From contig DCFQ01000103.1 in NCBI GenBank assembly GCA_002319915.1, forward strand, positions 12,653 through 76,652: DNA of 64,000 nucleotides. The letters run 5' to 3'. The DNA comes from Bacteroidales bacterium UBA1800 (GTDB lineage: Bacteria > Bacteroidota > Bacteroidia > Bacteroidales > VadinHA17). Positions 10,919 to 56,806 of the stretch are shown piece by piece (position 1 is the stretch's first letter; the number at the start of each line of letters is the position of its first letter). Under the pieces are notes generated by a model. The model saw nothing but the letters and a program-made list of their open reading frames with translations, had not been told where the DNA came from and made no database searches. Both the position numbers and the translations under genes were made by a program.

Positions 10919-12511
10919 ATGAAACGCACGCTTATTATCACTGGTATTGTCGTAATTGCAGCTATTGCAATTCTTATAGTTATCGGCAAGTTGACCAAAA
11001 AGAAGGAAGTTGCCAACCTGTATGTTCAGGCACAAAAGGGGCAGTTTCAGATTGTCGTCTCGACTACCGGTGAACTGCAGGCCGAGAAATCAACCGACAT
11101 CATCGGTCCCGACTTTACTATGAGCAGAAATATCAGGGCGATGGATATTAAAATAACCGACCTGGTCCCGGAAGGAACGGAGGTTAAAAAAGGTGATTAT
11201 GTGGCAACGCTCGACAGAACCTCGTTCGACAACAGCCTGAAGGATGAAAATGACAAGCTGATAACCGCCGAGAACAATGTCGAGGTCAAAATGCTCGATA
11301 CTGCAGTTACCTTGAGTGAGCTGAGGGACAATATCAAGAACCTGAGATATTCTGTTGAAGAGGCTGCCATAACCGTCCAGGAATCGAAGTACGAACCCCC
11401 GACAACCATCCGGCAGGCTGAGATCTCCCTCGACAAGGCAAAGCGTAACCTCGACCAGTCAATTAAAACCTACGGACTGAAAACCCAGCAGGCCAGGACC
11501 GATATGAGGACCCTTAAGAAAACTCTTTCGGACCAGCGCCAGAGAGTAAATGATTTTGCAGCCATACTTGAAAGATTTCTCATTAAGGCGCCAGCCGACG
11601 GCATGGTCATTTACAAAAGGGACAGGATGAATGCAAAAAGGAAGGTCGGTTCGTCAATATCGCCATGGGACAACGTGGTAGCTACACTACCCGATATGTC
11701 AGTAATGATCTCCAAAACATATGTCAATGAAATTGATGTGAGCAAAGTCAAGTCCGGCCAGAAGGTCGAGATCGTCGTGGATGCATTTCCCGAGAAATCC
11801 TACACAGGCGAGGTGGTCAGCGTGGCCAACATCGGTGAACAGCTTCCGAATGCCGATGCAAAGGTGTTTGAAGTTCAGATCCAGGTCGACGGTTCGGACC
11901 CGATCCTGAGGCCATCGATGACGACAGGTAACAAGATCATCACAAAGACCATCAAGGATGTGACGTATATTCCGCTTGAATGCGTACAGACCGGTACAGA
12001 CAGCATCCCGTTCGTTTACACCAGGAACGGCAACAAGCAGATTGTGCTTCTGGGGGAATCAAATGAAAACAACGTGATTGTCGAACAGGGAGTGAAGCCG
12101 GGGGAATCACTTTACCTCAGCACCCCTGCTAAACCTTCAGGATTCAGGACTTCAGGCCAGGACCTTATCGCCCTTAACCGGCAGCGTGCGAAAGAGAAGC
12201 AGGCTGAAGAGGTAAGGGTCAGGGAGGAAGCCGCCAAGGCAGCGGCTAACAGGCAGCAGATGCCCATGGGCGGGCCGATGAATCCCGAAATGATGGGAAG
12301 GTTCAGCAACATGAGAGGCGGGACCATGCCGACTGGCCAGGCCGGCGGAGTCAGGGATACGGCCAGGATGAGGCGTTTCATGCAGATGCGCAATGGCCAG
12401 CAGGGCATACAGCAGGGAGCAGGAAAGGACACTTCGGCAAGGAGAAACCGTAATATCCAGGGGACTACCCAGCAAGGCGACCGGCAGCAGGGACCGGACT
12501 CCAAACGATAG
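10919..12511 (+). CDS. HlyD/MacA-type periplasmic adaptor with a long Met/Gln/Arg/Gly-rich C-terminal tail
   Basis: N-terminal TM anchor (IITGIVVIAAIAILIVI), a coiled-coil hairpin region, and barrel-like segments (GQKVEIVVDAFPEKSYTGEVVSVA). The last 125 aa or so are low complexity. Confidence 0.8.
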   Translation: MKRTLIITGIVVIAAIAILIVIGKLTKKKEVANLYVQAQKGQFQIVVSTTGELQAEKSTDIIGPDFTMSRNIRAMDIKITDLVPEGTEVKKGDYVATLDRTSFDNSLKDENDKLITAENNVEVKMLDTAVTLSELRDNIKNLRYSVEEAAITVQESKYEPPTTIRQAEISLDKAKRNLDQSIKTYGLKTQQARTDMRTLKKTLSDQRQRVNDFAAILERFLIKAPADGMVIYKRDRMNAKRKVGSSISPWDNVVATLPDMSVMISKTYVNEIDVSKVKSGQKVEIVVDAFPEKSYTGEVVSVANIGEQLPNADAKVFEVQIQVDGSDPILRPSMTTGNKIITKTIKDVTYIPLECVQTGTDSIPFVYTRNGNKQIVLLGESNENNVIVEQGVKPGESLYLSTPAKPSGFRTSGQDLIALNRQRAKEKQAEEVRVREEAAKAAANRQQMPMGGPMNPEMMGRFSNMRGGTMPTGQAGGVRDTARMRRFMQMRNGQQGIQQGAGKDTSARRNRNIQGTTQQGDRQQGPDSKR

Positions 12512-12541
12512 ATCAAACAAAAACTTAAAACCTTTACCGGT

Positions 12542-13921
12542 ATGTTAAAGTTCTTCTTCAGGTATTTCCATGATATGGAAATAGCGGTCGAATCAATCAT
12601 TTCGAACAAGCTCAAGTCTATGCTTACCGCACTTGGGATAATCTTCGGCGTTGCTGCCGTAATTGCGATGCTGGCAATAGGAAAAGGTGCAAAGCAGGAG
12701 ATCATGGAACAAATGAAGATGGTCGGGGTGAACAATATCCTGATCAATCCCATAATCCCTGAAAAGAGCTCCTCAAGTGAAAGCGGTGAAGAAAAAGAGC
12801 AGAAGAAATTTTCCCGGGGACTGAGCATGCAGGATGTCGAGTCAATCAGGCAGACCCTTCCTTCGGTTAAGAGAATAAGCCCTGAGATCTCCTTTAACTC
12901 CATTGCAATGCTGAACGGGGTGAAGTACACTGCCAAGCTGGTCGGGGTTTCAAACGATTATTTCCATCTTTACAATCTTCCTCTCATTGAAGGATCATTC
13001 TTCAATAAGTTCCAGGAATACAACGGGATACAGGTATGTATCATAGGAGCGAATATCAGGGCGAAGTTTTTCAGCCAGATCGAGCCGATTGGGCAGTATA
13101 TCAAGTTCAACGGCATATGGCTCAAGGTTATAGGGGTACTTCAGAAGACAAATGTCAACCTGACTGGTTTCGAGGAAAAAGGCGTCAATGTTTACAACGA
13201 TAATATTTACATCCCAATACAGACAATGCTCCTGAGATATGAGAACAGGGGACTCGTCAACACCAAGCTGGTTTCGGAAGCATCTTCAAATGCCATGATC
13301 TTTGGCGGCCCGGGGTTTATGAGTATCGTCGCAGGAAGCAGCACTTCAGCCAGCAGTGCAGAGACAAACTACAACCAGCTCGACAGGATCGTTGTCCAGG
13401 TAAGCGAAACCGAACAGCTCAAGCCGACAACCGAGATCCTCAGCAGGATGTTTACGCGCCGCCATTCAGGAGTGAAGGATTTCGAGATAACTGTTCCGGA
13501 GCTTCTCCTTAAGCAGCAACAAAGGACAAAGGACATTTTCAATATAGTACTGGGAGCCATTGCAAGTATTTCACTCATTGTCGGGGGGATCGGCATTATG
13601 AATATCATGTTTGCCTCGGTGATGGAAAGGATAAAGGAAATTGGCACCAGGATGGCAATCGGGGCAAAAAAGATGGATATTGTCGTTCAGTTCCTTTCCG
13701 AGGCAGTGCTGATAAGCGTTTCAGGCGGCTTCATAGGGATCTTCCTCGGAGTGATAATGGCAAAGCTGATCCAGCAGATCGCGGGAATTATGACCATAGT
13801 CTCCTTTTTCTCGGTCTTCATTGCCTTCGGGGTATCGGCGGCTGTAGGGGTCGTGTTCGGATATTCCCCGGCAAAAAGAGCATCGGAAAAGGACCCGATC
13901 GAATCATTGAGATACGAATAA
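12542..13921 (+). CDS. MacB/FtsX-type ABC transporter permease (no fused ATPase)
   Basis: N-terminal TM, a large periplasmic domain, and the C-terminal FtsX 3-TM module with ERIKEIGTRMAIGAKKMDIVVQFLSEA. The stop overlaps the next ATG (TAATG). Confidence 0.85.
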   Translation: MLKFFFRYFHDMEIAVESIISNKLKSMLTALGIIFGVAAVIAMLAIGKGAKQEIMEQMKMVGVNNILINPIIPEKSSSSESGEEKEQKKFSRGLSMQDVESIRQTLPSVKRISPEISFNSIAMLNGVKYTAKLVGVSNDYFHLYNLPLIEGSFFNKFQEYNGIQVCIIGANIRAKFFSQIEPIGQYIKFNGIWLKVIGVLQKTNVNLTGFEEKGVNVYNDNIYIPIQTMLLRYENRGLVNTKLVSEASSNAMIFGGPGFMSIVAGSSTSASSAETNYNQLDRIVVQVSETEQLKPTTEILSRMFTRRHSGVKDFEITVPELLLKQQQRTKDIFNIVLGAIASISLIVGGIGIMNIMFASVMERIKEIGTRMAIGAKKMDIVVQFLSEAVLISVSGGFIGIFLGVIMAKLIQQIAGIMTIVSFFSVFIAFGVSAAVGVVFGYSPAKRASEKDPIESLRYE

Positions 13922-15423
13922 TGTTTTTAGATATGAAAAAGTTGTTTTTGCTGCCGGCTGTTGCAGTACTTATGTTTGTATTCCAGCGGGCGGAAGCCCA
14001 GGAGATCAAGAGGCTCAAGTTCAATGAGGTCATTGACCTGTCCGAGGGACAATCGCCCCAGGCGCTGATCGCCAAACACAGGTTCCGCGCCAGTTACTGG
14101 CAATACAGGACATTTATCGCCCAGTACAGGCCGTCACTTACGCTTACCGGAACCACTCCCCAGTACAGCACCGCATATGAGAGGGTGTGGAATTCTGCGA
14201 CCAATACCTGGGATTATGTGTCATCAAATACCCTTACCGACATCGGGTCACTTTCGCTGGCGCAGAACATCGGCCTTACGGGAGGTTCCATATTCCTCAA
14301 TTCAAGCCTTACCTTGTTCAACGATTTTGAAAAGGACGCCTTCATTCCTAGGAACTACATTACAGTCCCGCTGGGGATCGGAATTAACCAGCCGATCTTC
14401 AGGTATAACTCACTGAAGTGGCAGAAAAAAACGGAGCCTCTTAAATACGAAGCAGCAAAAAAGACCTTCCTTTACAATATAGAAACTGTTCATCTTCAGG
14501 CGGTCCAGTACTTTTTCGGGCTTGCACTGGCGCAGATCAACAAGCAGATTGCCGATATGAATTATTCTAATGCCGACACTCTCTACCGTATCGCCCAGGG
14601 TCGCTACCAGCTCGGAACGATCGCCGAGAACGAGCTGCTGGAACTGCAGCTTCAATGGCTGAACACTAAAACAAATGTCCAGGCTGCTGAGATGAACCTG
14701 AGGGACAGGGAAATACGACTCAGATCTTTCCTTGGATTCAATGACAACATCAGGCTCGAGCTGGATATTCCTTCCGGGATCCCGGATCTGCAGGTGAGCC
14801 CACAGGAGGTGCTCAACCTGGCGATGGCTAACAACCCTGAGATATTCAACCAGCAGCTGACGGTGCTTACAGCCCAGTCGAACGTGGCACAGGCAAAGGC
14901 AGAGAAGGGACTGAACGCTAACCTGTCACTCTCTTACGGATTACGCAATCAAAACCCCGATTTCTCAATGGCCTATGAAAAGCCGGCGAAACAACAGGTG
15001 GTAAACCTTGCATTTACATTGCCGATCGTTGACTGGGGCCTGGGCAGGGGAAAGTACAAGGTTGCCAAATCGAGCCTTGAGCTTGCCCAGGTGCAGTCGC
15101 AGCAGGCGATCATCGATTTCCAGGCAAACCTGCTTCTGGATGTGGAGCAGTTCAACCTCCAGGCGGCACAGGTTGCCGTTGCCGCCAAATCCGACACGGT
15201 AGCCAGGAAGATGTTCGAAGTTACAAAGCAGAGGTTCCTTATTGGAAAGATCCAGGTGCTGGAGCTGAACAATGCCGATACTAAAAAGGACCAGAACCGC
15301 AGGGCATGGGTCCAGTCGCTTCAGGATTACTGGAACTATTTCTTCACAGTCAGGAGCCTGGCACTCTACGACTTTGTGGCAAGGAAACCGCTTGAATCCG
15401 ACTACGAGAACCTGGTCAGGTAA
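13921..15423 (+). CDS. TolC-family outer membrane efflux protein
   Basis: Signal peptide (KKLFLLPAVAVLMFVFQRAEA) and two repeats of long helical and beta segments typical of OEP/TolC. An alternative start lies at 13933. Confidence 0.85.
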   Translation: MFLDMKKLFLLPAVAVLMFVFQRAEAQEIKRLKFNEVIDLSEGQSPQALIAKHRFRASYWQYRTFIAQYRPSLTLTGTTPQYSTAYERVWNSATNTWDYVSSNTLTDIGSLSLAQNIGLTGGSIFLNSSLTLFNDFEKDAFIPRNYITVPLGIGINQPIFRYNSLKWQKKTEPLKYEAAKKTFLYNIETVHLQAVQYFFGLALAQINKQIADMNYSNADTLYRIAQGRYQLGTIAENELLELQLQWLNTKTNVQAAEMNLRDREIRLRSFLGFNDNIRLELDIPSGIPDLQVSPQEVLNLAMANNPEIFNQQLTVLTAQSNVAQAKAEKGLNANLSLSYGLRNQNPDFSMAYEKPAKQQVVNLAFTLPIVDWGLGRGKYKVAKSSLELAQVQSQQAIIDFQANLLLDVEQFNLQAAQVAVAAKSDTVARKMFEVTKQRFLIGKIQVLELNNADTKKDQNRRAWVQSLQDYWNYFFTVRSLALYDFVARKPLESDYENLVR

Positions 15424-20168: not shown

Positions 20169-20924
20169 TCACCTTATCCCCAGCAAGTCCATGAGACCAT
20201 TGATAAAGGTAAGCGGATGAGCCGGATTCCCGGGGACATAAAGATCAACCGGGTGATTGTTAAGGAAGCTCCTGTCGAGGGCAGGACTTCCGTTGAAAAT
20301 ACCGCCGCTGATGGCATCCGTTCCGGCAAGGACAATGATCTTCGGAAATGGGACGGCGTCATAGGTGAGCCTGAGCGCTTCCGCCATGTTCGCGGTGAAA
20401 GGGCCCGTGATCACGATCCCGTCGGCGTGCCGGGGTGATGCAACGAATTCGATCCCGAACCTCCCCATATCAAAATTCACATTCCCCGAAGCGCCCAGCT
20501 CCATTTCGCACGAATTGTCTCCCCCGGCCGATACCTGCCGCAATTTGAGCGACCCCCTGAAAAGTTCCCTGATCTCCTTCCTTACCTTTGTTTCATCGAG
20601 CCTGATCCTGGCATCCGCACCGGGCTTCACGATGAGCCCGCCACGATCATTGACGGCAATCCTGTAATCATTGGTAAACTTTATGGCGCCGGGTTTCAGG
20701 AATGAACACTCGCCGCAGAAGAGGCACCTTCCGAGGTCGATGGCCCCCGAATCATTATTGATCGCACTGACCGGGCACACTGCCGCTGCTTCGCGAATAT
20801 CCCTGGTTGTTATTCCTTCCGCGATCACCGGGCGTCCCCTGAAGAGTGGCGAGACCGGCTGAGTGCGAAGGTCCTTTACCGACTGGTGGCCGTGTCGTGC
20901 CAGAATTGCCAATTCACGTATCAT
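20169..20924 (-). CDS. Hydrogenase-related small subunit: a HycF-like ferredoxin remnant fused to a HycG/NuoB-like domain with degenerate Fe-S ligands
   Basis: The C-terminal two thirds resemble HycG/NuoB (RFGIEFVASPRHADGIVITGP, SGGIF, VDLYVPGNP). The N-terminus carries CP...CLFCGEC. Cysteine positions are detailed in the findings. Confidence 0.8.
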   Translation of the reverse strand: MIRELAILARHGHQSVKDLRTQPVSPLFRGRPVIAEGITTRDIREAAAVCPVSAINNDSGAIDLGRCLFCGECSFLKPGAIKFTNDYRIAVNDRGGLIVKPGADARIRLDETKVRKEIRELFRGSLKLRQVSAGGDNSCEMELGASGNVNFDMGRFGIEFVASPRHADGIVITGPFTANMAEALRLTYDAVPFPKIIVLAGTDAISGGIFNGSPALDRSFLNNHPVDLYVPGNPAHPLTFINGLMDLLGIR

Positions 20925-20948
20925 ACTAATCAGCTTTTGTTAATCAGG

Positions 20949-22469
20949 TTACAGATCATGACCGCAATAGCTCAGGTTAAAGCTTTTATTGCAAACAGGG
21001 AAATCTGAGATCTCCTGGCTCCTTACCGCAAGCGCAAGGGCCATCCAGTTATGCACCGAAGGATCTTTTACTTTATAATGTACAAGGTTTCCCTTTGCAT
21101 CAGTTTCACATGAATGGACGATCTCTCCCCTCCATCCCTCGACGACCGAAACCGAAAAAGCACCCGGCTTCAATTTATATGAATAGTCAGGCTTCCCGGT
21201 ATCTTTATCCTTGCCTGCCCATACCTCGAGAAGCTCCCTGATGATCCTCAATGATTCCCTTACTTCCAGCTTCCGGATCATTCCCCGTGCCAGAACGTCC
21301 CCGGTTTCGAGTATTGCCGGGTTAACGGCAAAGTTCCTGAAGTACTGAAAAGGATGTGTTTTCCGTACATCCCGGGCCATCCCGCACGTTCGGGCCGCGA
21401 TTCCCACGGCCCCGATCTGCCTTGCCTGCGTGCCGGTGACAGTTCCTATATCCTCGAATCTTGCCAGAACGCTGGGGGAGGAATAGATGCACTCTGTTAT
21501 TCCTGAAAATTGCCTGTCAACAAAATCTGTCATTTTAATGATCTCCGCTGCCGTTTCCTCTGAGAGCGGAAAGTTGCTGCCGCCCGACCTGATCAAGCCT
21601 TTGCCGAACCTGTTACCGCACCACAGCTGGGTGGTATTTATCACCCTGGTCCTTATGGCTTCGCAAACCACCTGGCCGAGCTGATAGGCCACGTCACCGC
21701 AAAGGGCAGCGGTATCGCCGATATGGACTGCGATCCTTTCCATTTCGAGAGCGACGCATCTTTCGATCTGAAGTGCTTCGCCTGGTTCCAGCCCCGTAAG
21801 TGATTCAATAAGCTGGGTATGGGCCAGTGAATGTCCCACTGCCGTATCACCGGCAATTGACTCCGCAAGGATGCACCTCTGCAGGGGAGTGTTTTTCGAA
21901 AGGAACAGATCTTCGGTCCCGCGATGCTGGTAACCCAGCTGGATCTCCAGGTGGAGCACTTTTTCGCCGTTGCAGATGAACCTGAAATGGCCGGGCTCAA
22001 TCACCCCGGCATGCACCGGACCGACACCGACCTCGTGAAGCTCTTCGCTTTCTATCCCGTAGAACGGGTAATTCTCCATGGTCTTTGACTTATCCCGGCG
22101 GTTGTGGGGAAATCTTACGCCTTTCATCCACGGATGCCCCTCAAATACGACACCGAAATTTTCATTTATCTCCCGTTCGAAGACGGAGAGCTGAGGAAAG
22201 AGATCTGCTGCTGACCTGAGCACCGGATTCAGAGTGCCGGTCTCATATGCAGCGACTTCAATATTGCCGGAGGGATCATCTGCCAGAAAGCAGTAAAGCT
22301 TTAAGCTATCCTGGGTTTTAATGCCGTAGTATGCCAGGCAGTGCCTGGCTTCATCCTTTAACCCATCGGTGACAAAGCTGTAAAAATCATCATAACCGGA
22401 GATGGGTATTTCCCTGACCCCCCCTGCAGGATAATTGTTTTTCAGTTTGAAATGAGATGGTTGGTCCAT
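20949..22469 (-). CDS. Hydrogenase-related large subunit (NuoC-like plus NuoD/HycE/HyfG-like) lacking the [NiFe] cysteine motifs
   Basis: GPVHAGVIEPGHFRF and LGYQHRG match group 4 large subunit and NuoD signatures. The L1 and L2 motif positions read SIAGDTAVGH and SFNLSYCGHDL. Confidence 0.85.
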   Translation of the reverse strand: MDQPSHFKLKNNYPAGGVREIPISGYDDFYSFVTDGLKDEARHCLAYYGIKTQDSLKLYCFLADDPSGNIEVAAYETGTLNPVLRSAADLFPQLSVFEREINENFGVVFEGHPWMKGVRFPHNRRDKSKTMENYPFYGIESEELHEVGVGPVHAGVIEPGHFRFICNGEKVLHLEIQLGYQHRGTEDLFLSKNTPLQRCILAESIAGDTAVGHSLAHTQLIESLTGLEPGEALQIERCVALEMERIAVHIGDTAALCGDVAYQLGQVVCEAIRTRVINTTQLWCGNRFGKGLIRSGGSNFPLSEETAAEIIKMTDFVDRQFSGITECIYSSPSVLARFEDIGTVTGTQARQIGAVGIAARTCGMARDVRKTHPFQYFRNFAVNPAILETGDVLARGMIRKLEVRESLRIIRELLEVWAGKDKDTGKPDYSYKLKPGAFSVSVVEGWRGEIVHSCETDAKGNLVHYKVKDPSVHNWMALALAVRSQEISDFPVCNKSFNLSYCGHDL

Positions 22470-22475
22470 AATGGT

Positions 22476-23906
22476 TCAGAATGATCCCAGGGTGAGAATG
22501 TTGCTTTTGATAATATCGGTCAGGAAAGGTGGCTGGTAAAAGCATAATATCACTACCAGCCCCAGCAGGATGAACTGGGAGACGGTCTCCACCGCCCTCA
22601 CGGAGGTCACCTGGGGCTGGTCAGGTATCGAACGGGGATCCGAAAAAACTATGTGCATGGTCCGGGTGGTCATAGCGTAAATAACGAAACAAAGGAGGAA
22701 GAAAGTGATGATAAGGACAGCCCAGTTGCTGCCGGTAACCATTGCCCTGAATATCATTATTTCGCTGATGAACAGCCCTGAGGGCGGAATTCCCAGGATG
22801 CAGATAACCCCTGTTATGAGCACGAGTGATCCGGCCGGATAGAGCGCCATATACCTGCCGCAATCATCGAGCTTGAATGTGTGCAGGACCCGTGACAGCT
22901 GCCCCATCTGGTAGAAAAGGCTCGACTTTATCAGTGAGTGGAGGACAATTATCAGGAATGCAGCGTAATAGCCTTCCCCGCCGATCCCGGTGGCGATCGC
23001 GACAAGACCCATGTTCTCAAGGCTCGAATAGGCAAGCATTCGCTTCAGATGCTTCGCTTTCAGCATGTATCCAGCTGCAATAAGCAGGGAAAGGATGCCT
23101 GCCAGGATGAGCACATTATTCATGAAGCTGCGGATGGGCGAGGAGGCAAAAAGTGAATAGACCCTGAAGATCGACAGGAACCCAACGTTCATCAGTGTGG
23201 TCGAGATCAGTGCGCTCACGGGAGGAGGTGAAACCGAGTGTGCATCAATGGTCACCGTGTGCATCGGAAAGAGCCCCATTTTTGTACTGAATCCGACCAG
23301 GACAAAAAGGAACGCGATCTTCAGATAGAGGGGGTTTGCCTTGTCTATTATGACCGACAGATTCTCAAATGTCAGGTTTGCAGCATCGCCCCGGCCGTAG
23401 ATGAAACCGAGGAAAAGGATCCCAAGGTATGCAAGGGCAATGCCGGTGGAACAGATGAAAACATATTTCCAGGTCGCCTCCAGGGCCATTTCGGTCCGGT
23501 CGTGATAGATAAGTGCAGCAACAGCAAGAGTGGTGGCTTCGACAAAGATCCAGAGGACCGTCATTCCATTTGCCAGGTACGCTCCCGACATGAAAGTCAT
23601 CAGCAGGATCAGGGAAGCATGGTAAATGTTGTATTTCCTGATGTCATCCTTCGCCGTATATACAAATCCATGGTAAAACGTAGGGATGGTGAGAAGTGAA
23701 AGGATCGCGAGGAGAAGCACGCCCGAGCTGCTGAAGGTGAAATAGATGAGTTCGGTGGAATTCAGATTCATCCAGGAATGGATGGTGAGCCCGATATGGA
23801 TCAGGGCATAAAGCAGTGATATAAGCCTGGTTACCAGCTTATTCCTGAAAAGGAAAACTGAAAGGCTCAATAGAAATGCCGAAGAAAAGAAAATCAAAAC
23901 TGCCAT
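22476..23906 (-). CDS. HyfF/NuoN/MrpD-like antiporter-type membrane subunit
   Basis: 476-aa polytopic protein with STKMGLFPMHTVTIDAHSVSPPPVSALIS, a proton-conducting membrane transporter signature. Confidence 0.85.
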   Translation of the reverse strand: MAVLIFFSSAFLLSLSVFLFRNKLVTRLISLLYALIHIGLTIHSWMNLNSTELIYFTFSSSGVLLLAILSLLTIPTFYHGFVYTAKDDIRKYNIYHASLILLMTFMSGAYLANGMTVLWIFVEATTLAVAALIYHDRTEMALEATWKYVFICSTGIALAYLGILFLGFIYGRGDAANLTFENLSVIIDKANPLYLKIAFLFVLVGFSTKMGLFPMHTVTIDAHSVSPPPVSALISTTLMNVGFLSIFRVYSLFASSPIRSFMNNVLILAGILSLLIAAGYMLKAKHLKRMLAYSSLENMGLVAIATGIGGEGYYAAFLIIVLHSLIKSSLFYQMGQLSRVLHTFKLDDCGRYMALYPAGSLVLITGVICILGIPPSGLFISEIMIFRAMVTGSNWAVLIITFFLLCFVIYAMTTRTMHIVFSDPRSIPDQPQVTSVRAVETVSQFILLGLVVILCFYQPPFLTDIIKSNILTLGSF

Positions 23907-23909
23907 CCC

Positions 23910-24524
23910 TCAGTCTTTTAGCATTGTAAGTTCGTTGGTATGTGGCTTGAGACGCAATCCAAAAAAGCCCAGGATAAGAACCCCCACGAATATGTCGAGC
24001 AGGATCCCGATGTTTATCAGCGCCGGCATCCTGCTGCCTATTGCAAGGGAGAACATGAACACGGCATTTTCCACGATCAGAAAGCCTATCAGGTGCGAAA
24101 TGATCAGCTTATGGGTAATTATCAGGAGCAGCCCCGTCAATAACGTGTAGAGTGCGACGGCCATGTAAATGACGTTGATATACTGGTTGATCATTGCGCC
24201 CGCGAGAATGACGCTCACAAGCAGCGACAGGATGGAGAGAAGCAGAAGGTAAAATCCCGGCGTTGCCTGCCGGTGTACCTTGGAGACCCCGGAACGGCTG
24301 ATAATCCTGGAAAGAAGATAAGGAATGAGCAGTGTTTTAATTATAAGTGTTTCCGTCACGATGAACAGCAGGTTAACAGTATTTATCTCATTCAGCTCGA
24401 AAACTGCTATTCCGCACAGCAGCAAACCCTGTATTGCAAGCAGCCTGATATATATTATCAGCCTTTCTGCCGCGGCGAAATAAACCAAAGTAACCGAAAA
24501 TAAAACTATAAGATAGTTAACCAT
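23910..24524 (-). CDS. HyfE-like small membrane subunit (NuoK-related)
   Basis: 204-aa protein with multiple TM helices and a membrane-embedded Glu in IVENAVFMFSL. It sits between the HycD-like and HyfF-like genes, as in hyf operons. Confidence 0.7.
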   Translation of the reverse strand: MVNYLIVLFSVTLVYFAAAERLIIYIRLLAIQGLLLCGIAVFELNEINTVNLLFIVTETLIIKTLLIPYLLSRIISRSGVSKVHRQATPGFYLLLLSILSLLVSVILAGAMINQYINVIYMAVALYTLLTGLLLIITHKLIISHLIGFLIVENAVFMFSLAIGSRMPALINIGILLDIFVGVLILGFFGLRLKPHTNELTMLKD

Positions 24525-24530
24525 TGAAAA

Positions 24531-25445
24531 TCAGACTGTTAATTTATTTGTAAGTATAAGGACGATCACAAATGAGATCCAGGCAATCGCTGATATAGTG
24601 AGCAGATACTTCGGGTTCTTGTTCATTTTATTCCTGGCCCTGAATGATTCAAGCAGGCCGATGGCAACTGCAAACAGCAGCTGTACGGCAAGGAACAATA
24701 TGACATGAAGGAAAATATTCCATCCGGAGGGAACGATAATATTATACATCAGGGAGCCGTAAACTGCAAATTTCAGGTAGGATGTGATATGGATCAGGGC
24801 TTTGTCGAAGCCGCTGTTATCCAGGATCATTACCTCGTGGATCATGGTGAGCTCAAGATGTGTCCTGGGATCATCCACAGGGACACGACTGTTCTCTACC
24901 ATGGCGATCTGGGTAAACAGGAAAATACCGATTATGCTGAATATCAGCACATAATCATTTCCGGTGAGGAAGAAGTGATTGAAAATGCCTGAAAAAGAGG
25001 TGTGACCGGTGAACATGGCAAAAGTAGCCATCAGGATGAAAAAGGCAGGTTCAATGAGCATTGAGAAGAATGCTTCCCGGTTGGCTCCCATTCCTTCAAA
25101 GCTGCTGCCTGTGTCGAGAGCGGCAATTATAGAGAAGAACTTCCCGAGCCCGATAAGGTACGCGAAAAAGATAAAGTCGCCTCCGAATGAGATCAGCGAT
25201 CGCTGGTTTGCGAACGGAAGCAGCAGTGAAGCGCATACCAGGGTTGACAATGCAATTACCGGCGCGATCTGGAAGATAATGCCTGTCGTCCCGCTGAATA
25301 CGCTGCCTTTCCTCAGGAGGACAGCAATATCCTTCAGCGGCTGGAAAATCCCAGGCCCCTTGCGTCCCGATGCAATACTTTTTGTCCGCAGGATGATCCC
25401 GGGGAAAAACAGTGCCGATATGAATATCAGAATAACTCCCGGCAT
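24531..25445 (-). CDS. HycD/HyfC/NuoH-like membrane subunit
   Basis: 304-aa polytopic protein. The N-terminal loop GRKGPGIFQPLKDIAVLLRKG matches the NuoH/HycD signature. Confidence 0.85.
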   Translation of the reverse strand: MPGVILIFISALFFPGIILRTKSIASGRKGPGIFQPLKDIAVLLRKGSVFSGTTGIIFQIAPVIALSTLVCASLLLPFANQRSLISFGGDFIFFAYLIGLGKFFSIIAALDTGSSFEGMGANREAFFSMLIEPAFFILMATFAMFTGHTSFSGIFNHFFLTGNDYVLIFSIIGIFLFTQIAMVENSRVPVDDPRTHLELTMIHEVMILDNSGFDKALIHITSYLKFAVYGSLMYNIIVPSGWNIFLHVILFLAVQLLFAVAIGLLESFRARNKMNKNPKYLLTISAIAWISFVIVLILTNKLTV

Positions 25446-25446
25446 C

Positions 25447-27441
25447 TCAGATCAGTTTGAGGCAGGTTAATAAAAAGATCACCAGCATGAAGATGAAGGC
25501 GTATAATATATAGTGGCGGATCTGCCCCGTCTGCATGACAGCAATTTTCTTAAGCAGGGCCGAGATCCAATCGACCGGGATATCGATCAGGATCTTCTTC
25601 AGAATATCTTCGCTGCGCGATTTGAAGGCCCGTTTCCCGGGAAATATTTCTTCTTCCCCTATCTCCTTCATTACCTTCCTGGTCTGAAGCAATGGTTTTG
25701 CAAGGTGATTATAGTTATACGAATATGAAGTGGCTGTATACTGCTGCCTGGCATTGACGGCAGTGTACCCGCATCCCCATGTCGGGCCGGTCGTGACCAT
25801 GCGGCTCTTCAGGTGATAGCGCCTGTAAACCAGCAATGCAACGGTGATCAGGACAAAAATGCCCCCGAGCAGGCTTATCCCGGCAAGGTTTGTGAGGTAA
25901 CCACTCCCCGCAAGGTCGGTACCCGGCAGGTTGAATGAGACTCTTACGGTCTCAAAAAGAGGTTTTACGACCAGGAATGATCCAAACCCGATCAGCAGGA
26001 TAAAGAAGAGGGTCAGTAACTGCGGAACGAGCATCGATCTGCTGACCTCTCCTGCCGATTCCGCTTCCCCTGTGCGAGGCTGGCCTAGGAACACTATGCC
26101 GAAGGCTTTTGTAAAGCAGAAAATTGCCAGCCCTCCGATCAGCACAAGGCCCGTGATCACCAACAGGAACATAATCGAGTGGATAAGGTCAGCTGATGGG
26201 AGGCTGGTAAATATGCCGGCATAGATCAGGTACTCCGAGATAAAGCCGTTAAATGGCGGCAAGCCGCAAATAGCAAGCGAGCCGATAAGAAAGAGGCCGG
26301 CGGTATATGGCATCTTCTTCATCAGGCCCCCGAGCTTTTCTATATTCCGGGTATGGGTGACTGTGTATACCGATCCGGCATTGAAAAACAGCATCGACTT
26401 GAAAAGGGAATGGTTCATGACATGCAGAAGACCGCCGCCAAATCCGAGGAGGCTCAGCACCGTATTCCCCGTTGAAAGGCCGATAACCCCGAGCCCGAGG
26501 CCTATCCCTATAATTCCAATATTCTCGATGCTGTGGTATGCAAGCAGCCTTTTGATGTCGTGCTGCATTATCGCCATCATCACTCCGAAAAGTCCTGAGA
26601 TGACCGAAACGGCAAGGATGAAAATGCCGGTGATCAGCAGGTCGCTTTGCAGTGCGGCGAGGACCCTGATTATCCCGTATATTCCCATTTTTATCATTAC
26701 TCCCGACATCACTCCGGAAACATGTGACGGGGCTGCGGGATGGGCATCAGGAAGCCACGTGTGCAAGGGGATGAACCCGGCCTTTATCCCGAACCCTGCA
26801 AAGAACAGGAGAAAGAGCGGAAAATTTGGATTTCCGGAGAAATAATCCTTCAACGCATCAAAGCTCATCTGGCCGGTGTACCTGCTTACCAGGAGGAACC
26901 CTGTCAGGATGAAAAACATTCCGGCATGCATCTGGATGAGGTAATTGATGCCGGTCTTCAGGATCACCCTTTCTTCCGCCTCGAAGATGACCAGGAGAAA
27001 TGACGATACAGCCATCAGCTCCCAGGCGATCAGGAAGAAAAGTCCGTCGCGGATTGTAACCACGAAGATCATGGAAAGGTAGAGCCACAGATATGAGAAA
27101 TAATGAATCGAAAAGCGAAGCGCATTTTTCTCATGATAGTACGGCTTCAGGTATCCTTTAGCGTAAAGGAATCCGACAAGTGACGTGATGTTGATGACAA
27201 GAATGAAGAATGCTGAGAGCCTGTCGATCACAAGGGGGAAGCTCCTTTGAAGCAGCGGGATTGCGATCCTGATGTCATCTGCCCCGGAATCCTGCACGTA
27301 CAGGAGGATGGCCCAGTATGTGGTCGCGGCAATTCCTGCCCCGAGTATTGCAAGGGTGAAATAATATTTAAGGGATTTCGGGATGAAAAATACCCCGAAT
27401 GATAAAATAACAGAGATCAGAAGAATATATGTCAAGACCAT
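25447..27441 (-). CDS. HyfB/HycC/NuoL-like antiporter-type membrane subunit
   Basis: 664 aa with WELMAVSSFLLV (TM Glu) and GIKAGFIPLHTWLPDAHPAAPSHVSGVMSGVMIKMG. It is the first gene of the operon. Confidence 0.85.
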   Translation of the reverse strand: MVLTYILLISVILSFGVFFIPKSLKYYFTLAILGAGIAATTYWAILLYVQDSGADDIRIAIPLLQRSFPLVIDRLSAFFILVINITSLVGFLYAKGYLKPYYHEKNALRFSIHYFSYLWLYLSMIFVVTIRDGLFFLIAWELMAVSSFLLVIFEAEERVILKTGINYLIQMHAGMFFILTGFLLVSRYTGQMSFDALKDYFSGNPNFPLFLLFFAGFGIKAGFIPLHTWLPDAHPAAPSHVSGVMSGVMIKMGIYGIIRVLAALQSDLLITGIFILAVSVISGLFGVMMAIMQHDIKRLLAYHSIENIGIIGIGLGLGVIGLSTGNTVLSLLGFGGGLLHVMNHSLFKSMLFFNAGSVYTVTHTRNIEKLGGLMKKMPYTAGLFLIGSLAICGLPPFNGFISEYLIYAGIFTSLPSADLIHSIMFLLVITGLVLIGGLAIFCFTKAFGIVFLGQPRTGEAESAGEVSRSMLVPQLLTLFFILLIGFGSFLVVKPLFETVRVSFNLPGTDLAGSGYLTNLAGISLLGGIFVLITVALLVYRRYHLKSRMVTTGPTWGCGYTAVNARQQYTATSYSYNYNHLAKPLLQTRKVMKEIGEEEIFPGKRAFKSRSEDILKKILIDIPVDWISALLKKIAVMQTGQIRHYILYAFIFMLVIFLLTCLKLI

Positions 27442-27565
27442 GCCGGTATGAAAAATACTTTAAGATACGACTGACAATATTTTCCAGGGCTTTTAAGCCC
27501 CTGCTGCCAGGTTTCGATTCAGGATGGTTTTATTGAATGAGAGAGACCATCGGTTTTTTCGAGCC

Positions 27566-27573
27566 CAAAAGTA
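27566..27573 (-). promoter_or_regulatory. Candidate -7 box (TACTTTTG on the minus strand) upstream of the hyf-like operon
   Basis: Plus-strand caaaagta reads TAnnTTTG on the minus strand, about 125 nt upstream of the ATG at 27441. The nearest -33-like TTTG is poorly spaced. Confidence 0.25.
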
Positions 27574-27691
27574 TAAAAATATCCGTTAGTTTTTATTCAA
27601 TGCAAAATATCATCTGTTTGTTCTCCCAAGGACAAATGAAATGTTACGGTTAAACCAATTTCTTTAATTTTACGGAGCGGATTAAGGAATT

Positions 27692-33269: not shown

Positions 33270-34517
33270 ATGGACCGTCCGGTATCAAAAGAACATAAAA
33301 GGAAGCTGTTGATAAGGCAATATTCAATACTCGCTGTTGTAATTGCCGTACCGCTTCTGACAATTGTTTTTGCCAGGAATTTATTCACGCCAGGTGTTGC
33401 CCTGGCAAAGGTGACGACAGCAACAGCTGACTCAGGGAGCATCCAGATAACAGTGCAGGGTTCAGGTGTAGTAATCCCTTCGTACGAAGAGATAGTGACT
33501 TCCCCTTTCAGGAGCAGCGTGGTAAAGATCCTGAAAAAGCCGGGAGAGAAGCTGTCGAGCAAGGATACTATCCTGATCCTGAATAATAAGCTCGCAGATA
33601 ATGATCTGAATATGCTAGTAAATGAAGCCGAGCTGCAATATATCCGGATCGAGAAGCTCAGGATAGAGCTTCAGCAGCTGAAGGAAGACTTTGAGTTCAG
33701 CAGAAAAATCAAGGATATTAAAGTTGAGAGTGCCCGGTTAGCTTATGAAGCTGAATCAACTCTCAATAAGATGGGCGGAAGTCCTGCTTATGATGTGAAG
33801 AAGGCAAAAACAAGCTGGGATATTGAGGGGCTTGAAAACAGCCAGGCCCAATATAATTTCAATAACCAGGTGCATGCCAAGGAGAACGGCATACGTGAGC
33901 TTCAGACTGAGATAAATATCCAGAAAAACAAAATCGTAAAAGCCAGGGACCTTGTGGATCAGGCCTTTGTGAAGGCTCCGTTCAGCGGGGATCTCAGCTG
34001 GGTGATCGATCAGCCGGGAGCATCCGTTTCGGAAGGACAACAGATAGCCCGTATTGCGGATCTATCAAGCTATAAGCTCAAGGGAACGATCAGTAATTCT
34101 TGGTCGGGCCGGGTCATTACGGGTCAAAAGGTGGATATCAGGAACCAGGGAAAAGACCTCACAGGGACAATTGAGAACATAATGCCTGCTGTGGTACAGG
34201 GAATGATGGAATGCCTGATCCGGATCGATTCGGGGGATATCGTCAACCTGAGGCCTGCCCAGCAACTGGAGATAAGGGTGATAATTTCAGGGAAGAACAA
34301 GGTTCTGCGTATTCCGAACGGCACCTATTATAAGGACCGTGGGTATAAAGAGATGTATGTACTAAGGGGGAACAGGGCAATCCGGAAAAAGGTCCTCCTG
34401 GGGGATGCGAATTTTGATTATGTGGAGGTACTGGACGGCATAAAACAGGGTGAGCAGGTAATTCTTACAGATATTGCAGATAAGTATACGAGGGAGGAGA
34501 TAAGGGTGAAGAGGTAA
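33270..34517 (+). CDS. HlyD-family periplasmic adaptor subunit
   Basis: N-terminal TM (YSILAVVIAVPLLTIVF), a coiled-coil hairpin, and barrel segments (GQKVDIRNQGKDLTGTIENI). Confidence 0.8.
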   Translation: MDRPVSKEHKRKLLIRQYSILAVVIAVPLLTIVFARNLFTPGVALAKVTTATADSGSIQITVQGSGVVIPSYEEIVTSPFRSSVVKILKKPGEKLSSKDTILILNNKLADNDLNMLVNEAELQYIRIEKLRIELQQLKEDFEFSRKIKDIKVESARLAYEAESTLNKMGGSPAYDVKKAKTSWDIEGLENSQAQYNFNNQVHAKENGIRELQTEINIQKNKIVKARDLVDQAFVKAPFSGDLSWVIDQPGASVSEGQQIARIADLSSYKLKGTISNSWSGRVITGQKVDIRNQGKDLTGTIENIMPAVVQGMMECLIRIDSGDIVNLRPAQQLEIRVIISGKNKVLRIPNGTYYKDRGYKEMYVLRGNRAIRKKVLLGDANFDYVEVLDGIKQGEQVILTDIADKYTREEIRVKR

Positions 34518-34634
34518 TTTGAATATGAAGAGGTTACACAGAAGAGATCCTTAGTACCACATGGGACCATAGAGATGAAAAGGCGATGGAGCTATAGAGA
34601 GAGTGGGGCAAACGGGAAAAAGAAAGGAGAAGCG

Positions 34635-34676
34635 AGAAACCGTAAAATATAAACCATAAACCATAAACTATAAACA
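34635..34676 (+). repeat. Heptamer tandem array (agaaacc gtaaaat ataaacc ataaacc ataaact ataaaca) ending 6 nt before the ABC ATPase start codon
   Basis: Six 7-nt units read directly from the sequence. Two are identical and the outer ones are degenerate. Confidence 0.7.
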
Positions 34677-34682
34677 CTGTCT

Positions 34683-35345
34683 ATGATAAAACTCGAAAAC
34701 ATCAGTAAAGTCTACAGGACAAAAGAGATAGAGACCCTGGCCCTCGACAACATCAACTGCGATGTAAGTGAGGGTGAATTTGTGTCGGTGATGGGCCCGT
34801 CGGGATGCGGCAAAAGCACATTGCTCAATATAATCGGGCTGCTCGACGAGCCAGACGAAGGGAAGATAGCTCTCAATAAGGAGTTGATAATGTCGTACGA
34901 AGACAAAAAGACGGCAAAGATGAGGAACCAGCTCGTCGGGTTCATCTTTCAGAGTTTTCACCTTATAAAAGAGCTTAACGTTTATGATAATGTTGAACTT
35001 CCTCTTATCTACCGCAAAATGCCTGCATCTGAACGGAAGCAGCGTGTAACGGAAGCGCTTGAAAAGGTTGGCCTTACAAACAGGATGCAGCACTATCCTT
35101 CGCAGCTGTCAGGCGGACAGTGTCAGCGAACTGCCATCGCAAGAGCAATCGCCGGCGAACCAAAAATTATCCTGGCTGATGAGCCCACAGGAAATCTCGA
35201 TAGTAAAATAGGCCATGAGGTTGTGGACATACTGGCAGGCCTGAATGATAACGGGACAACGATCGTTATGGTTACACACGATGAGGCCATTGCAAAATCT
35301 ACACACCGGATTGTGAGACTATTCGATGGAAGGCTGGTGGGATGA
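34683..35345 (+). CDS. ABC transporter ATP-binding protein (MacB/LolD-type)
   Basis: Walker A GPSGCGKST, signature LSGGQCQRTAIARAI, Walker B ILADEPTGNLD, and VTHD. Confidence 0.9.
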   Translation: MIKLENISKVYRTKEIETLALDNINCDVSEGEFVSVMGPSGCGKSTLLNIIGLLDEPDEGKIALNKELIMSYEDKKTAKMRNQLVGFIFQSFHLIKELNVYDNVELPLIYRKMPASERKQRVTEALEKVGLTNRMQHYPSQLSGGQCQRTAIARAIAGEPKIILADEPTGNLDSKIGHEVVDILAGLNDNGTTIVMVTHDEAIAKSTHRIVRLFDGRLVG

Positions 35346-35436
35346 GAATTCGACAAGCCCTTAGTCCGTCTGAAAGGATTGCTTCGTCGCTGGAGCCCTC
35401 GCAATGACAACAGAATAAGTAGAGGCAGCACCCCCC

Positions 35437-35471
35437 GAGAAACGATAAACGAAGAACGTGTAATGATAAAA
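35437..35471 (+). repeat. Heptamer tandem array (gagaaac gataaac gaagaac gtgtaat gataaaa) ending 2 nt before the permease start codon
   Basis: Five 7-nt units with the period read directly. The gaNaaac core decays toward the 3' end. Confidence 0.6.
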
Positions 35472-35473
35472 CT

Positions 35474-36745
35474 ATGCTAAAAAACTATTTCAAAATATTC
35501 CTGAAGGTGGCTGCGCAGAATAAGCTCTTCACATTCCTGAGTTTGTTCGGAATAAGCCTGACCATTATGTTTGTCATGATCTTCAGCATGACACTCTCAA
35601 AAATCACCTCGGGATCGGGCCCCGAAAATGACCTGAAACAGATAATCTTTTGCCAGAGAGTAAAGACTGCTGAAACTCATAACGGAAAAAGGTGGGGCAA
35701 TGGTTACAGTGTAGCTTCAGTCGGGAAGAAATTTTCCGAGGATTATCTGAAGAAAGTTAAAAGTGCTGATTTAATATCGATGTATACCGGGCCCTCTCCA
35801 TGGGAATTCATTTTCAATGGAAATTATCAGAAAAAACTTCAGAACCAGACTGATGCCGAATACTGGAAAGTCTTCAACTATGAATTTCTCGAAGGCAGGC
35901 CATATACCGCTGAGGAGGTGACAAATGGCGCCAATCTTGCTGTGATATCACAATCATTAAAGGAACTGCTCTTCGGAAATGAAAAGAGCGTACTTGGAAA
36001 AACTATTCACTATACCTCGATGAATCTTATAGTGACCGGTGTTGTGACTGATCCGCCCAAGCCTGATCAGAATGCAATCGGCGACCTGTATTTCCCATAT
36101 ACATTGCTGAAAGGGTATGATTTTGATGATTATATCGGTAATTACAAAGTTGCTTTTAAAAGCCGGGGAAAGAAATTCGATATGATAAGGAATGAAGTGC
36201 AGGCAATAGTGTCGCGTGCTGACGCAGCTGATACCACAAGAGCAATATTCCTGTCCGGGCCCTTCACGCAGATGGAAAAAATGATGGTTGGTTATGGCGA
36301 TCCTGAAGATTATTCCATTGGGTTAAGCATTTTCAAGTATTTGATGATGGCTCTTGCCTTTATTCTTCTTCCGGCTGTTAACCTGATGTCCCTTAACTTT
36401 GCCCGTATCCATGAACGGGGTGAGGAGATAGCAGTCAGAAAATCTTTCGGAGCCGCAAGCGGTATTTTAAGGGGACAGTTCCTGTTTGAAAACATTCTCA
36501 TGACCATTTCAGGCGGGATACTGGGTATAATCTTATCTTACGTTGTGGTAGGTTTGCTCGGAAATTCTCTTTCAATGAGTTTTGGTTTTTGGAACAATGT
36601 TCCATTTTCGTTTTCATTCGATTTTAAAGTATTTGCTGTGGCTTTGACGGCATGTCTGATCTTCGGTCTTATGTCCGGCTTTTTGCCTGCAGTGAGACTA
36701 TCACGCATGAAACCTGCTGCTTATCTGAAAGGAGGTGAAATATGA
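35474..36745 (+). CDS. FtsX/MacB-type ABC transporter permease
   Basis: N-terminal TM, a large extracytoplasmic domain, and a C-terminal 3-TM module with ERGEEIAVRKSFGAASGILRGQFLFEN. Confidence 0.85.
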   Translation: MLKNYFKIFLKVAAQNKLFTFLSLFGISLTIMFVMIFSMTLSKITSGSGPENDLKQIIFCQRVKTAETHNGKRWGNGYSVASVGKKFSEDYLKKVKSADLISMYTGPSPWEFIFNGNYQKKLQNQTDAEYWKVFNYEFLEGRPYTAEEVTNGANLAVISQSLKELLFGNEKSVLGKTIHYTSMNLIVTGVVTDPPKPDQNAIGDLYFPYTLLKGYDFDDYIGNYKVAFKSRGKKFDMIRNEVQAIVSRADAADTTRAIFLSGPFTQMEKMMVGYGDPEDYSIGLSIFKYLMMALAFILLPAVNLMSLNFARIHERGEEIAVRKSFGAASGILRGQFLFENILMTISGGILGIILSYVVVGLLGNSLSMSFGFWNNVPFSFSFDFKVFAVALTACLIFGLMSGFLPAVRLSRMKPAAYLKGGEI

Positions 36746-37938: not shown

Positions 37939-37957
37939 ATTAGTAATTTCGTCAGCA

Positions 37958-53383: not shown

Positions 53384-53400
53384 CTGAAATTTAATAAAGT

Positions 53401-53433
53401 AAGTTTTCCCTCCTTGAAAAGGAGGGAAAACTT
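53401..53433 (+). terminator. Strong hairpin (13-bp perfect stem aagttttccctcc / ggagggaaaactt, 7-nt loop) after the GH2 gene
   Basis: Read directly from the sequence, 18 nt after the stop. There is no clear U-tract. It could be an intrinsic terminator, an RNA-stabilising hairpin, or another repeat-family member. Confidence 0.5.
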
Positions 53434-53492
53434 ATATCATACCGGCTCTGTGGCAATTGGGGAAAAAGGTGGTTAAAAAGAAGACTATTAAT

Positions 53493-54662: not shown

Positions 54663-54664
54663 CT

Positions 54665-56799: not shown

Positions 56800-56806
56800 G
56801 TCATAT

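Follow-up and report, generated by a model that had tools for sequence, protein, structure and literature searches.

A Bacteroidota-wide subclade of probable Ehr-type complexes with a single predicted [4Fe-4S] cluster

Background

Complexes of the energy-converting hydrogenase-related (Ehr) class are encoded by six- or seven-gene clusters akin to those of Ech/Hyf hydrogenases and complex I; most are without the NiFe cysteines, and their function is described as unknown (PMC7894505, PMC3569383, PMC6349859, PMC10284858, PMC10432482, PMC7304191). They were named in Geobacter sulfurreducens, where GSU0739-0745 encode EhrA-1 through EhrC, EhrL and EhrS (PMC7894505), and are explicitly excluded from HydDB as non-hydrogenases (PMC5037454). 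Ehr complexes have also been reported from Desulfotomaculum, Nitrospira, Margulisbacteria, bacteria of the Candidate Phyla Radiation (CPR) and ammonia-oxidising archaea, and have been proposed as a link between group 4 hydrogenases and complex I. The subject of this paper is a six-gene operon of Bacteroidales bacterium UBA1800 (assembly GCA_002319915.1), located in a stretch of 64,000 nucleotides of contig DCFQ01000103.1 (positions 12,653 to 76,652, forward strand), which was analysed as a whole and is referred to as the window. The operon very probably encodes an Ehr-type complex belonging to a Bacteroidota-wide subclade whose members keep one iron-sulfur (Fe-S) cluster motif. In a literature search, which did not reach the founding Ehr papers, no description was found of an Ehr complex without the proximal cluster or of Ehr in Bacteroidota.

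Described Ehr complexes combine NuoL/HyfB-, NuoH-, HyfE- and HyfF-like subunits with a small subunit and a group-4-type large subunit devoid of NiFe cysteines (PMC7894505, PMC3569383, PMC6349859, PMC10284858), and the same set is encoded in the window. Escherichia coli formate hydrogenlyase (FHL-1; Hyc, 7Z0S) and hydrogenase 4 (Hyf) supply the best sequence or fold matches for five of the six window subunits (HycC, HycD, HycE and HycG; HyfB, HyfE and HyfF profiles), and share with the window operon the gene order B-C-E-F-G-(H+I) and the HycE-type fusion of NuoC and NuoD. Unlike FHL and Hyf, the window complex has neither the NiFe site nor the proximal cluster, its HycF counterpart is cut to one cluster and fused to HycG, no HycB/HyfA, FdhF, HycI or Hyp genes are found near the operon, and identity is ~22-34%. 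Pyrococcus furiosus MBH and MBS/Mbx (6CFW, 6U8Y) also join NuoB-, NuoD- and NuoH-like subunits to Mrp-like ones, MBS being a precedent for a group-4 relative with no NiFe site and changed chemistry. MBH and MBS keep three [4Fe-4S] clusters, of which the proximal one is the catalytic centre in MBS; it is this cluster that is absent from the window complex. Complex I/NDH-1 (Nuo, Ndh) contains homologues of its subunits in NuoB, C, D and H and in NuoL/M/N, and the NuoCD fold of E. coli and Aquifex matches EhrL at template-modelling (TM) scores of 0.72-0.78, whereas the window complex is without cluster N2, the quinone-binding His/Tyr pair, separate NuoA, NuoJ and NuoI subunits, and NuoEFG.

Results

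Operon and subunit identities

The six open reading frames (ORFs) are co-directional on the minus strand of the window (20169-27441; Table 1) and are separated by 1, 6, 3, 6 and 24 nt. An earlier reading of the DNA letters, made with no database searches (the sequence-only reading), had proposed six genes here in the order HyfB-HycD-HyfE-HyfF-HycE-(HycF+HycG), and both the ORFs and the family searches agree with it. Families were assigned by Pfam, NCBIfam and PDB sequence searches, with which AlphaFold2 (AF2) models are in agreement; the HyfE-like subunit gave no Pfam match, and in the PDB sequence search only chance-level matches to signal peptidase II. Because every NCBIfam score falls well below its curated cut-off, those of equivalog models far below, none of the proteins is an equivalog of a named enzyme. 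Two antiporter-like subunits (PF00361 twice) and a NuoH-like subunit (PF00146 once) are co-encoded, in a synteny kept in 80 genome and 35 metagenome loci, together with a large subunit that is homologous to those of group 4 [NiFe]-hydrogenases and has no L1/L2 CxxC cysteines, as in the type excluded from HydDB. Assignment to the Ehr class, also suggested by the sequence-only reading, was judged by the published description, so that the comparison with the G. sulfurreducens Ehr proteins is one of subunit names and composition (PMC7894505), which match, and relatives occur in phyla from which Ehr has been reported; the operon fits this description of a class whose role is still called unknown (PMC10284858, PMC7894505, PMC6349859, PMC5037454).

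Table 1. Features of the Ehr-type operon and its leader (window coordinates)
Feature	Position	Strand	Basis
EhrA/HyfB/HycC-like antiporter-type subunit, 664 aa	25447..27441	-	PF00361 1e-53; hydrogenase 4 subunit B (NCBIfam) 1e-159; HycC 7z0s_C 1e-62
EhrB/HycD/NuoH-like subunit, 304 aa	24531..25445	-	PF00146 9e-27; HycD 7z0s_D 7e-21
EhrC/HyfE-like small membrane subunit, 204 aa	23910..24524	-	NCBIfam PRK11492 (hydrogenase 4 membrane subunit) 3e-11
EhrD/HyfF-like antiporter-type subunit, 476 aa	22476..23906	-	PF00361 1e-40; HyfF models 3e-69; MbsH 6u8y_H 1e-29
EhrL, fusion of NuoC-like and HycE/NuoD-like parts, 506 aa, without NiFe/quinone ligands	20949..22469	-	PF00329 and PF00346; HycE 7z0s_E 1e-32
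Former L1 NiFe motif, residues 203-213 of EhrL, ESIAGDTAVGH replacing RxCGxCxxxH	21831..21863	-	alignment to HycE and Nqo4
Former L2 NiFe motif, residues 495-506 of EhrL, KSFNLSYCGHDL replacing DPCxxCxxR	20952..20987	-	alignments; relatives
Small subunit, fusion of ferredoxin remnant and HycG/NuoB-like domain, 251 aa	20169..20924	-	PF01058; MbhJ, HycG; weak HycF/HyfH/NuoI matches, residues 1-100
HycF/NuoI-type ferredoxin remnant, residues 1-115 of small subunit, one [4Fe-4S] motif C50-P...C67-x2-C70-x2-C73	20580..20924	-	PRK12387 and PRK08222 match residues 1-100
HycG/MbhJ/NuoB-like domain, residues 126-251 of small subunit, proximal ligands now D136/C139/D203/N233	20172..20549	-	PF01058; MbhJ (6cfw_J) 3e-22, HycG 1e-18
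Candidate -7 promoter box of Bacteroidetes type, TACTTTTG, at 125 nt upstream of first gene	27566..27573	-	weak; 33 found against 31 expected in the window

Loss of cluster and active-site ligands

In the ferredoxin remnant at the N-terminus of the small subunit, motif 1 has lost its first three cysteines and is left with CP (C50), and motif 2 has lost its last cysteine and is left with CxxCxxC (C67, C70 and C73). The four cysteines that remain, which are invariant in 77/77 small subunits and in 124/124 relatives, are predicted to bind exactly one [4Fe-4S] cluster in a 2x[4Fe-4S] ferredoxin fold. Cluster N6b of Nqo9 is ligated by Cys63/98/101/104, and by this pattern the survivor is probably the medial, N2-adjacent (N6b-like) cluster. 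The ligands of the proximal (N2-type) cluster in MbhJ and HycG (CxxC, GxC and PGCP) align to D136, C139, D203 and N233, so that one of the four cysteines (C139) is kept. Among 77 genome-derived small subunits, D136 is found in 72, D203 in 74 and N233 in 75, C139 is variable (57/77), and none has a cysteine at positions 136, 203 or 233. The AF2 model of the small subunit (predicted local distance difference test, pLDDT, 95; predicted TM score, pTM, 0.91) superposes on MbhJ and HycG over ~130-143 residues, with a root-mean-square deviation of 1.7 Å on MbhJ.

Four representative proteins that seemed to depart from this pattern were rejected as variants. In P0123, P0140 and P0232 the last CxxCxxC appeared to be lost, giving 'zero-cluster' proteins, and these are assembly frameshift artefacts; the contig of P0123 (locus L164) carries a canonical CPT...CTFCGEC motif in another reading frame. 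Almost every gene of this contig (ENA ERZ25039492 contig_82600) is fragmented, which points to an indel-rich assembly, and representatives drawn from assemblies of this kind can pass for 'loss' variants. The gene call of P0144 is a chimera whose N-terminus is IspF-like.

Residue-level alignments of EhrL were made to HycE (1e-32), MbhL (2.5e-30) and Nqo4. The L1 motif of HycE, RVCGICGFAH, aligns with SIAGDTAVGH and the L2 motif, DPCYSCTDR, with NLSYCGHDL, and none of the four NiFe cysteines is present at the aligned positions. C502, the sole cysteine in the L2 region of EhrL, falls one position before the second L2 cysteine and is out of register. The quinone ligands of complex I are absent as well: His38 of Thermus thermophilus Nqo4 aligns to I157 and Tyr87 to G207, a residue that is invariant in the family. 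The sequence-only reading had held, by eye, that both catalytic signatures are lost and that one Fe-S cluster motif survives. The alignments to HycE, MbhL, Nqo4, MbhJ and HycG bear this out, with no L1/L2 cysteine in place, one of four proximal cysteines kept, and C50-P...C67/C70/C73 as the remaining motif.

On these grounds it is scarcely credible that the operon encodes a true [NiFe]-hydrogenase of group 4 (Hyf/Hyc type), or a quinone reductase of NDH-1 type, whose ligands are unusual. The best matches, to HycE, HycG, HycC and HycD of E. coli FHL and to MbhL/MbhJ, speak for such an enzyme, but the tally of no NiFe cysteine, one proximal cysteine and no equivalent of His38 or Tyr87 holds for every clade member examined, and NCBIfam equivalog scores lie far below their cut-offs.

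Distribution and stepwise cluster loss

Homologues of EhrL number in the thousands; the top 120 are 63-69% identical, and the named ones among them are proteins of Bacteroidales metagenome-assembled genomes (MAGs). Both the closest homologues and the composition of the DNA point to a Bacteroidales bacterium. Automatic annotation labels them 'Ni,Fe-hydrogenase III large subunit' or 'NADH-quinone oxidoreductase subunit C', and a 'subunit B' label also occurs. When one genome per GTDB species was scanned, at least 584 relatives were confirmed, and the best 80 of these species genomes were compared in detail. All 80 are Bacteroidota MAGs except one Ignavibacteriaceae MAG and one labelled Alphaproteobacteria, and the groups represented are Bacteroidales, Rikenellaceae, Lentimicrobiaceae, Prolixibacteraceae, Cytophagales, Chitinophagales, Saprospiraceae and Flavobacteriales. 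Some of the MAGs are assigned to Ohtaekwangia, Chryseolinea, Ferruginibacter, Rikenella and Acetobacteroides, genera of which strains are in culture. Host habitats are anaerobic digesters, sediments, soils and guts. The order B-C-E-F-G-HI is kept in nearly all complete loci of the 80 genomes, at 48-78% identity, with a tandem HyfB-like gene in six. The MAG labelled Alphaproteobacteria (SACF01000041.1) carries a Bacteroidota-type one-cluster Ehr operon whose products are 53-61% identical to the window proteins; mis-binning of the contig or lateral transfer is the likely cause.

When 1.84 billion cluster representatives were searched exhaustively with the small subunit as query, 116 matched below 1e-30. 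In an alignment of the top 150 the fused ferredoxin-NuoB architecture is widespread and most representatives keep the four N2 cysteines; named relatives belong to Cloacimonadota, Wallbacteria, Nannocystis (Myxococcota), Nitrospirota and Methanomassiliicoccales. A profile of N2-containing proteins yielded 80 metagenome loci, in which these six genes are arranged as B-C-E-F-G-HI or as G-HI-B-C-E-F. Every metagenome locus with EhrL on the contig, N2-containing or N2-less, carries the EhrL motifs E[ST]IAGD[TS]xx[GA]H and KSF[ND]LSYCGxDL, and since these motifs are the same in both kinds of locus, both belong to one family of NiFe-less, Ehr-type complexes.

Clusters were counted in the 124 loci with both head subunits. 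Three clusters (12 Cys) are present in 18, the distal cluster alone is lost in seven, and in the other 99, the window included, the distal and proximal clusters are lost and the medial one is kept. At the N2 positions, 24 relatives outside the clade have CCCC and one truncated relative has CCC-; by far the larger part of the 99 clade members have D-x-[DE]-x. Most Ehr relatives outside the clade thus keep three clusters, whereas the clade of the window is without the proximal N2-type and distal ferredoxin clusters. In a neighbour-joining (NJ) tree of large subunits, which has short branches and no support values, the 99 N2-less sequences form a single, mostly Bacteroidota clade. Far from being an oddity of the window genome, the one-cluster state is strongly conserved throughout the clade, a large lineage of Bacteroidota. 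It appears to have been reached stepwise, from three-cluster and two-cluster Ehr relatives. The ligand loss was fixed under purifying selection and not by decay, because the N2 replacements D136, D203 and N233 are 94-97% conserved and EhrL has more than 150 invariant columns among genome-derived relatives.

The loss of the canonical active-site ligands and of input and maturation genes could also be read as the mark of a decaying, functionless relic of a hydrogenase or formate hydrogenlyase operon. The conservation data effectively refute this very improbable reading: the six ORFs are intact and tightly spaced, the same genes stand in the same order in nearly all of the 80 species-level genomes with hundreds of invariant positions, and an identical contig was obtained in three independent public sequencing runs.

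The former NiFe pocket

The region of EhrL that once held the NiFe site is strongly conserved. E203, G207, D208 and H213 are 94-100% conserved in 118 relatives, the L2-region motif is identical in N2-containing and N2-less relatives, and the pocket residues E158, H161, D208, H213, R447, H452, C502 and D505 are equally conserved in the N2-less clade and in N2-containing relatives. A second set of residues (C44, C60, C61, C257, Q263, Q281, W283, N286, K290 and C451) is derived in the clade and absent from N2-containing relatives. Four of the cysteines among them, C44, C60, C257 and C451, were gained in the N2-less clade and are 86-96% conserved there; EhrL of the window has Val at 451 and a cysteine at 454 instead. 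Q281, W283, N286 and K290 fall in the TGxRxxxxxxRxGG segment, which faces cluster N2 in complex I (Nqo4 His169; Yarrowia lipolytica 49-kDa His226). The replacement of cysteine by D136 and D203 and the position of Q281-K290 in this N2-facing segment suggest that the N2 cavity was refilled by polar or salt-bridge (Asp-Lys) contacts. The AF2 model of EhrL (pTM 0.81) has HycE (7z0s_E, TM 0.75) as its best Foldseek match, followed by NuoCD fusions, and is uninformative on pocket geometry because confidence is low in the beta1-beta2 loop region (131-181) and at the C-terminus (482-506).

These residues raise the alternative that the former NiFe pocket is a new, non-hydrogenase catalytic or metal site (D208, H213, H452 and C502 with C257 and C451). 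Such a site would carry out a reaction coupled to the gradient and independent of an electron wire, such as a vectorial hydration or hydrolysis like the CO2 hydration by CupA (cyanobacterial NDH-1) or DabAB. Next to no variation is seen in IAGD...H, WRGEI(C)H and LSYCGxDL, in N2-containing and N2-less Ehr alike, which suggests a pocket role independent of N2; the four EhrL cysteines were, moreover, gained exactly in the N2-less clade. The case is nevertheless purely inferential, given the low model confidence at 131-181 and 482-506, the window protein has Val451, and no accessory or metal-insertion genes are conserved nearby, which leaves a new site improbable.

Membrane subunits

Conservation in the family is 90% or more at E141, K220, K251, K348 and E403 of the HyfB-like subunit, and in the HyfF-like subunit E123, K209, K327 and E382 are invariant. 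The claim of the sequence-only reading that the antiporter-like subunits keep their membrane Glu/Lys signatures therefore stands, with one exception at transmembrane helix 8 of the HyfF-like subunit, where the position of the central lysine holds a conserved asparagine (N240), present in 92/94 one-cluster clade members and most of the N2-containing relatives. Because this lysine is replaced by a conserved Asn, the HyfF-like module is not a fully canonical antiporter module. The HyfE-like subunit has conserved membrane glutamates (E58 and E152), and the NuoH-type loop E184-x-x-R-x-P-x-D-D-P-x-T-H-L-E-L-T-M-x-H-E-V-M is conserved in N2-less and N2-containing relatives.

Mrp antiporters (6Z16, 7QRU), whose structures are among the PDB matches of the HyfB-like subunit, have homologous MrpA/MrpD-type subunits with the same pattern of Glu in helix 5 and Lys in helices 7, 8 and 12, apart from N240 in the HyfF-like subunit. 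Homologues of NuoB, NuoD and NuoH are missing from Mrp, which contains MrpB/C/E/F/G instead, whereas the window complex keeps the entire hydrophilic adaptor module and an Fe-S cluster. No MrpB/C/E/F/G-type Pfam matches were found among the six genes, and the window complex is not a member of the Mrp family.

The six loci with a tandem second HyfB-like gene (~675 amino acids, 44-48% identical to the first), which occupies ~2 kb between B and C, are of Chitinophagales and Flavobacteriales type (L061, L065, L068, L074, L081 and L083). This seven-gene version recalls the seven-gene Geobacter cluster and the name EhrA-1.

Genomic neighbourhood and operon leader

The operon is flanked by a convergent LolD-like ABC ATPase gene and a divergent DUF2400 gene, as unrelated to the complex as had been supposed. 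The expectation that input and maturation genes are missing from the 64 kb was likewise confirmed: Pfam scans of ~40 other ORFs of the window, seven of which gave no match, found no hyp, fdh, hycB/hyfA, hycI, nuo or ferredoxin genes. Beyond the window, ORFs were clustered within 10 kb on either side of the 80 genome loci and within 9 kb on either side of 35 metagenome loci. Nothing was conserved there beyond the six genes, and no conserved hyp, endopeptidase, fdh or HycB/HyfA-type genes were found in these flanks. Clade-local neighbours (a GH109-like oxidoreductase, an M49 peptidase, gamma-glutamyltranspeptidase, PHO4 and others) were considered as partners and set aside, there being no evident link to the complex.

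At six N2-containing loci (among them L087:9836-10510, plus strand), and at none of the Bacteroidota one-cluster loci, a gene with HTH_17 and PTS EIIA-2 domains (PtsN-like) lies inside or adjoins the Ehr cluster. EIIA(Ntr) proteins regulate K+ transport in proteobacteria, and the presence of an EIIA gene next to N2-containing Ehr may hint at a link to ion homeostasis.

The operon leader comprises 250 nt (27442 to 27691). An Rfam scan of the window gave no matches, so no known riboswitch was found in the leader; scans for sigma-70 promoters and terminators gave background level only, and the -7 box motif is not enriched across the window. A perfect palindrome, GGGCTTaaAAGCCC (window ~27485-27505, minus strand), lies ~50 nt upstream of the start codon and is followed by no T-tract.

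Elsewhere in the window are genes for SecDF, TatA, glycoside hydrolases, a sigma-54 two-component pair, MutS and Lgt. Positions 50585-63936 hold an amino-sugar/sialic-acid utilisation block, with genes for a GH2 exo-glucosaminidase-like protein, NagA, a ROK kinase, an MFS transporter, a SIS-domain protein, a BNR sialidase-like protein, an SSF symporter and an N-acetylglucosamine (GlcNAc) 2-epimerase. There are two MacB/FtsX-HlyD-type efflux sets, one at 10919-15423, followed by an outer-membrane factor, and one at 33270-40679, which includes an ABC ATPase of its own and after which come a sigma-54 response regulator and a histidine kinase.

Discussion

The reading of the one-cluster Ehr complex preferred here, and held tentatively, is that of a redox-uncoupled ion translocator. 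From the ligand loss, its conservation across the clade, the conserved membrane residues and the lack of conserved partner genes, all of them observed, we infer that electron transfer is absent. The electron wire of distal, medial and proximal [4Fe-4S] clusters is cut at both ends, with only the medial cluster left. Electrons would no longer reach the pocket at the interface of the large subunit and the NuoH-like subunit, and we propose that oxidoreductase activity was lost for this reason; such distance arguments draw on the geometry of complex I and FHL. The complex would then act as a cation/proton translocator coupled to the membrane potential, in the manner of Mrp, which works without redox chemistry; the ion, the direction of transport and the role of the cluster are matters of interpretation. 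The ion path would run through the intact Glu/Lys relay of the two antiporter-like subunits, the glutamates of the HyfE-like subunit and the NuoH-like channel, and the hydrophilic cap would still serve in assembly or gating. Mrp cryo-electron microscopy (cryo-EM) structures show that antiporter-type membrane architecture can run without redox input. For the [4Fe-4S] cluster that is left, the role would be a structural one, or at most one in sensing redox state or oxygen. A structural role fits a wire that has lost its entry and exit and kept its middle, and complex I, with its off-pathway cluster N7, offers a precedent for a conserved cluster outside the relay. Cytophagales, Chitinophagales, Saprospiraceae and Flavobacteriales are largely aerobic, and their presence among the hosts, beside anaerobic Bacteroidales and Rikenellaceae, argues against a role in ferredoxin-based fermentation.

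Several points weigh against a redox-uncoupled translocator. The full conservation of the cluster cysteines in 124 relatives, together with that of the pocket residues, seems more than a passive cap would need, and the four cysteines gained in N2-less EhrL (C44, C60, C257 and C451) could build a new site. To our knowledge, no NuoB/NuoD/NuoH module works in a pure antiporter. The N2-adjacent placement of the surviving cluster depends on the Nqo9 ligation pattern rather than on a modelled complex. Once the distal cluster is lost, this medial cluster may be exposed to solvent and able to react with ferredoxin. A partner could also be encoded elsewhere in the genome, beyond the 64 kb.

Such exposure is central to the main alternative, in which the complex is still a redox-driven ion pump. 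The exposed [4Fe-4S] cluster would take electrons from ferredoxin or flavodoxin and pass them to a substrate or partner bound beside it, with chemistry at the cluster as proposed for the proximal cluster of MBS, and the change in charge would drive the NuoH loop and the antiporter modules. The absolute conservation of the four cluster cysteines, the conserved NuoH-type coupling loop and pocket residues, and the small-subunit fold predicted at pLDDT 95 all agree with this, and the two-cluster relatives (medial plus N2) indicate that the medial cluster can be an entry point. On the other side, no acceptor site is expected within plausible tunnelling distance once N2 is gone (by complex I geometry), no partner gene is conserved in 115 loci, and the complex occurs in aerobic lineages. 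A redox-driven pump is accordingly judged unlikely, if less so than a new catalytic site, and the redox-uncoupled translocator is retained as the preferred reading.

Conclusions

As far as found in the literature, the Ehr class itself is known and its phylum-wide one-cluster variant is new. A large and ecologically important phylum carries an Ehr complex stripped of both ends of its electron wire, under strong purifying selection. Under present automatic annotation, these proteins would inflate the potential for H2 metabolism or respiration inferred for Bacteroidota MAGs. The series of three-, two- and one-cluster complexes offers a contrast by which to ask whether Ehr needs electron delivery to the pocket. 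It is conceivable, though we would not yet count on it, that a Bacteroidota-wide lineage runs a complex-I-type machine, NuoB/NuoD/NuoH head included, with no electron-transfer chain. If true, this may be the first case of a complex I coupling module without redox chemistry, the cluster series would be a natural dissection of the role of the Ehr head, and the coupling apparatus of complex I and group 4 hydrogenases would be one that can be driven or gated by non-redox means, for instance by the ion gradient, which would make the complex a capped, Mrp-like antiporter, or by ligand or metal chemistry in the conserved former NiFe pocket.

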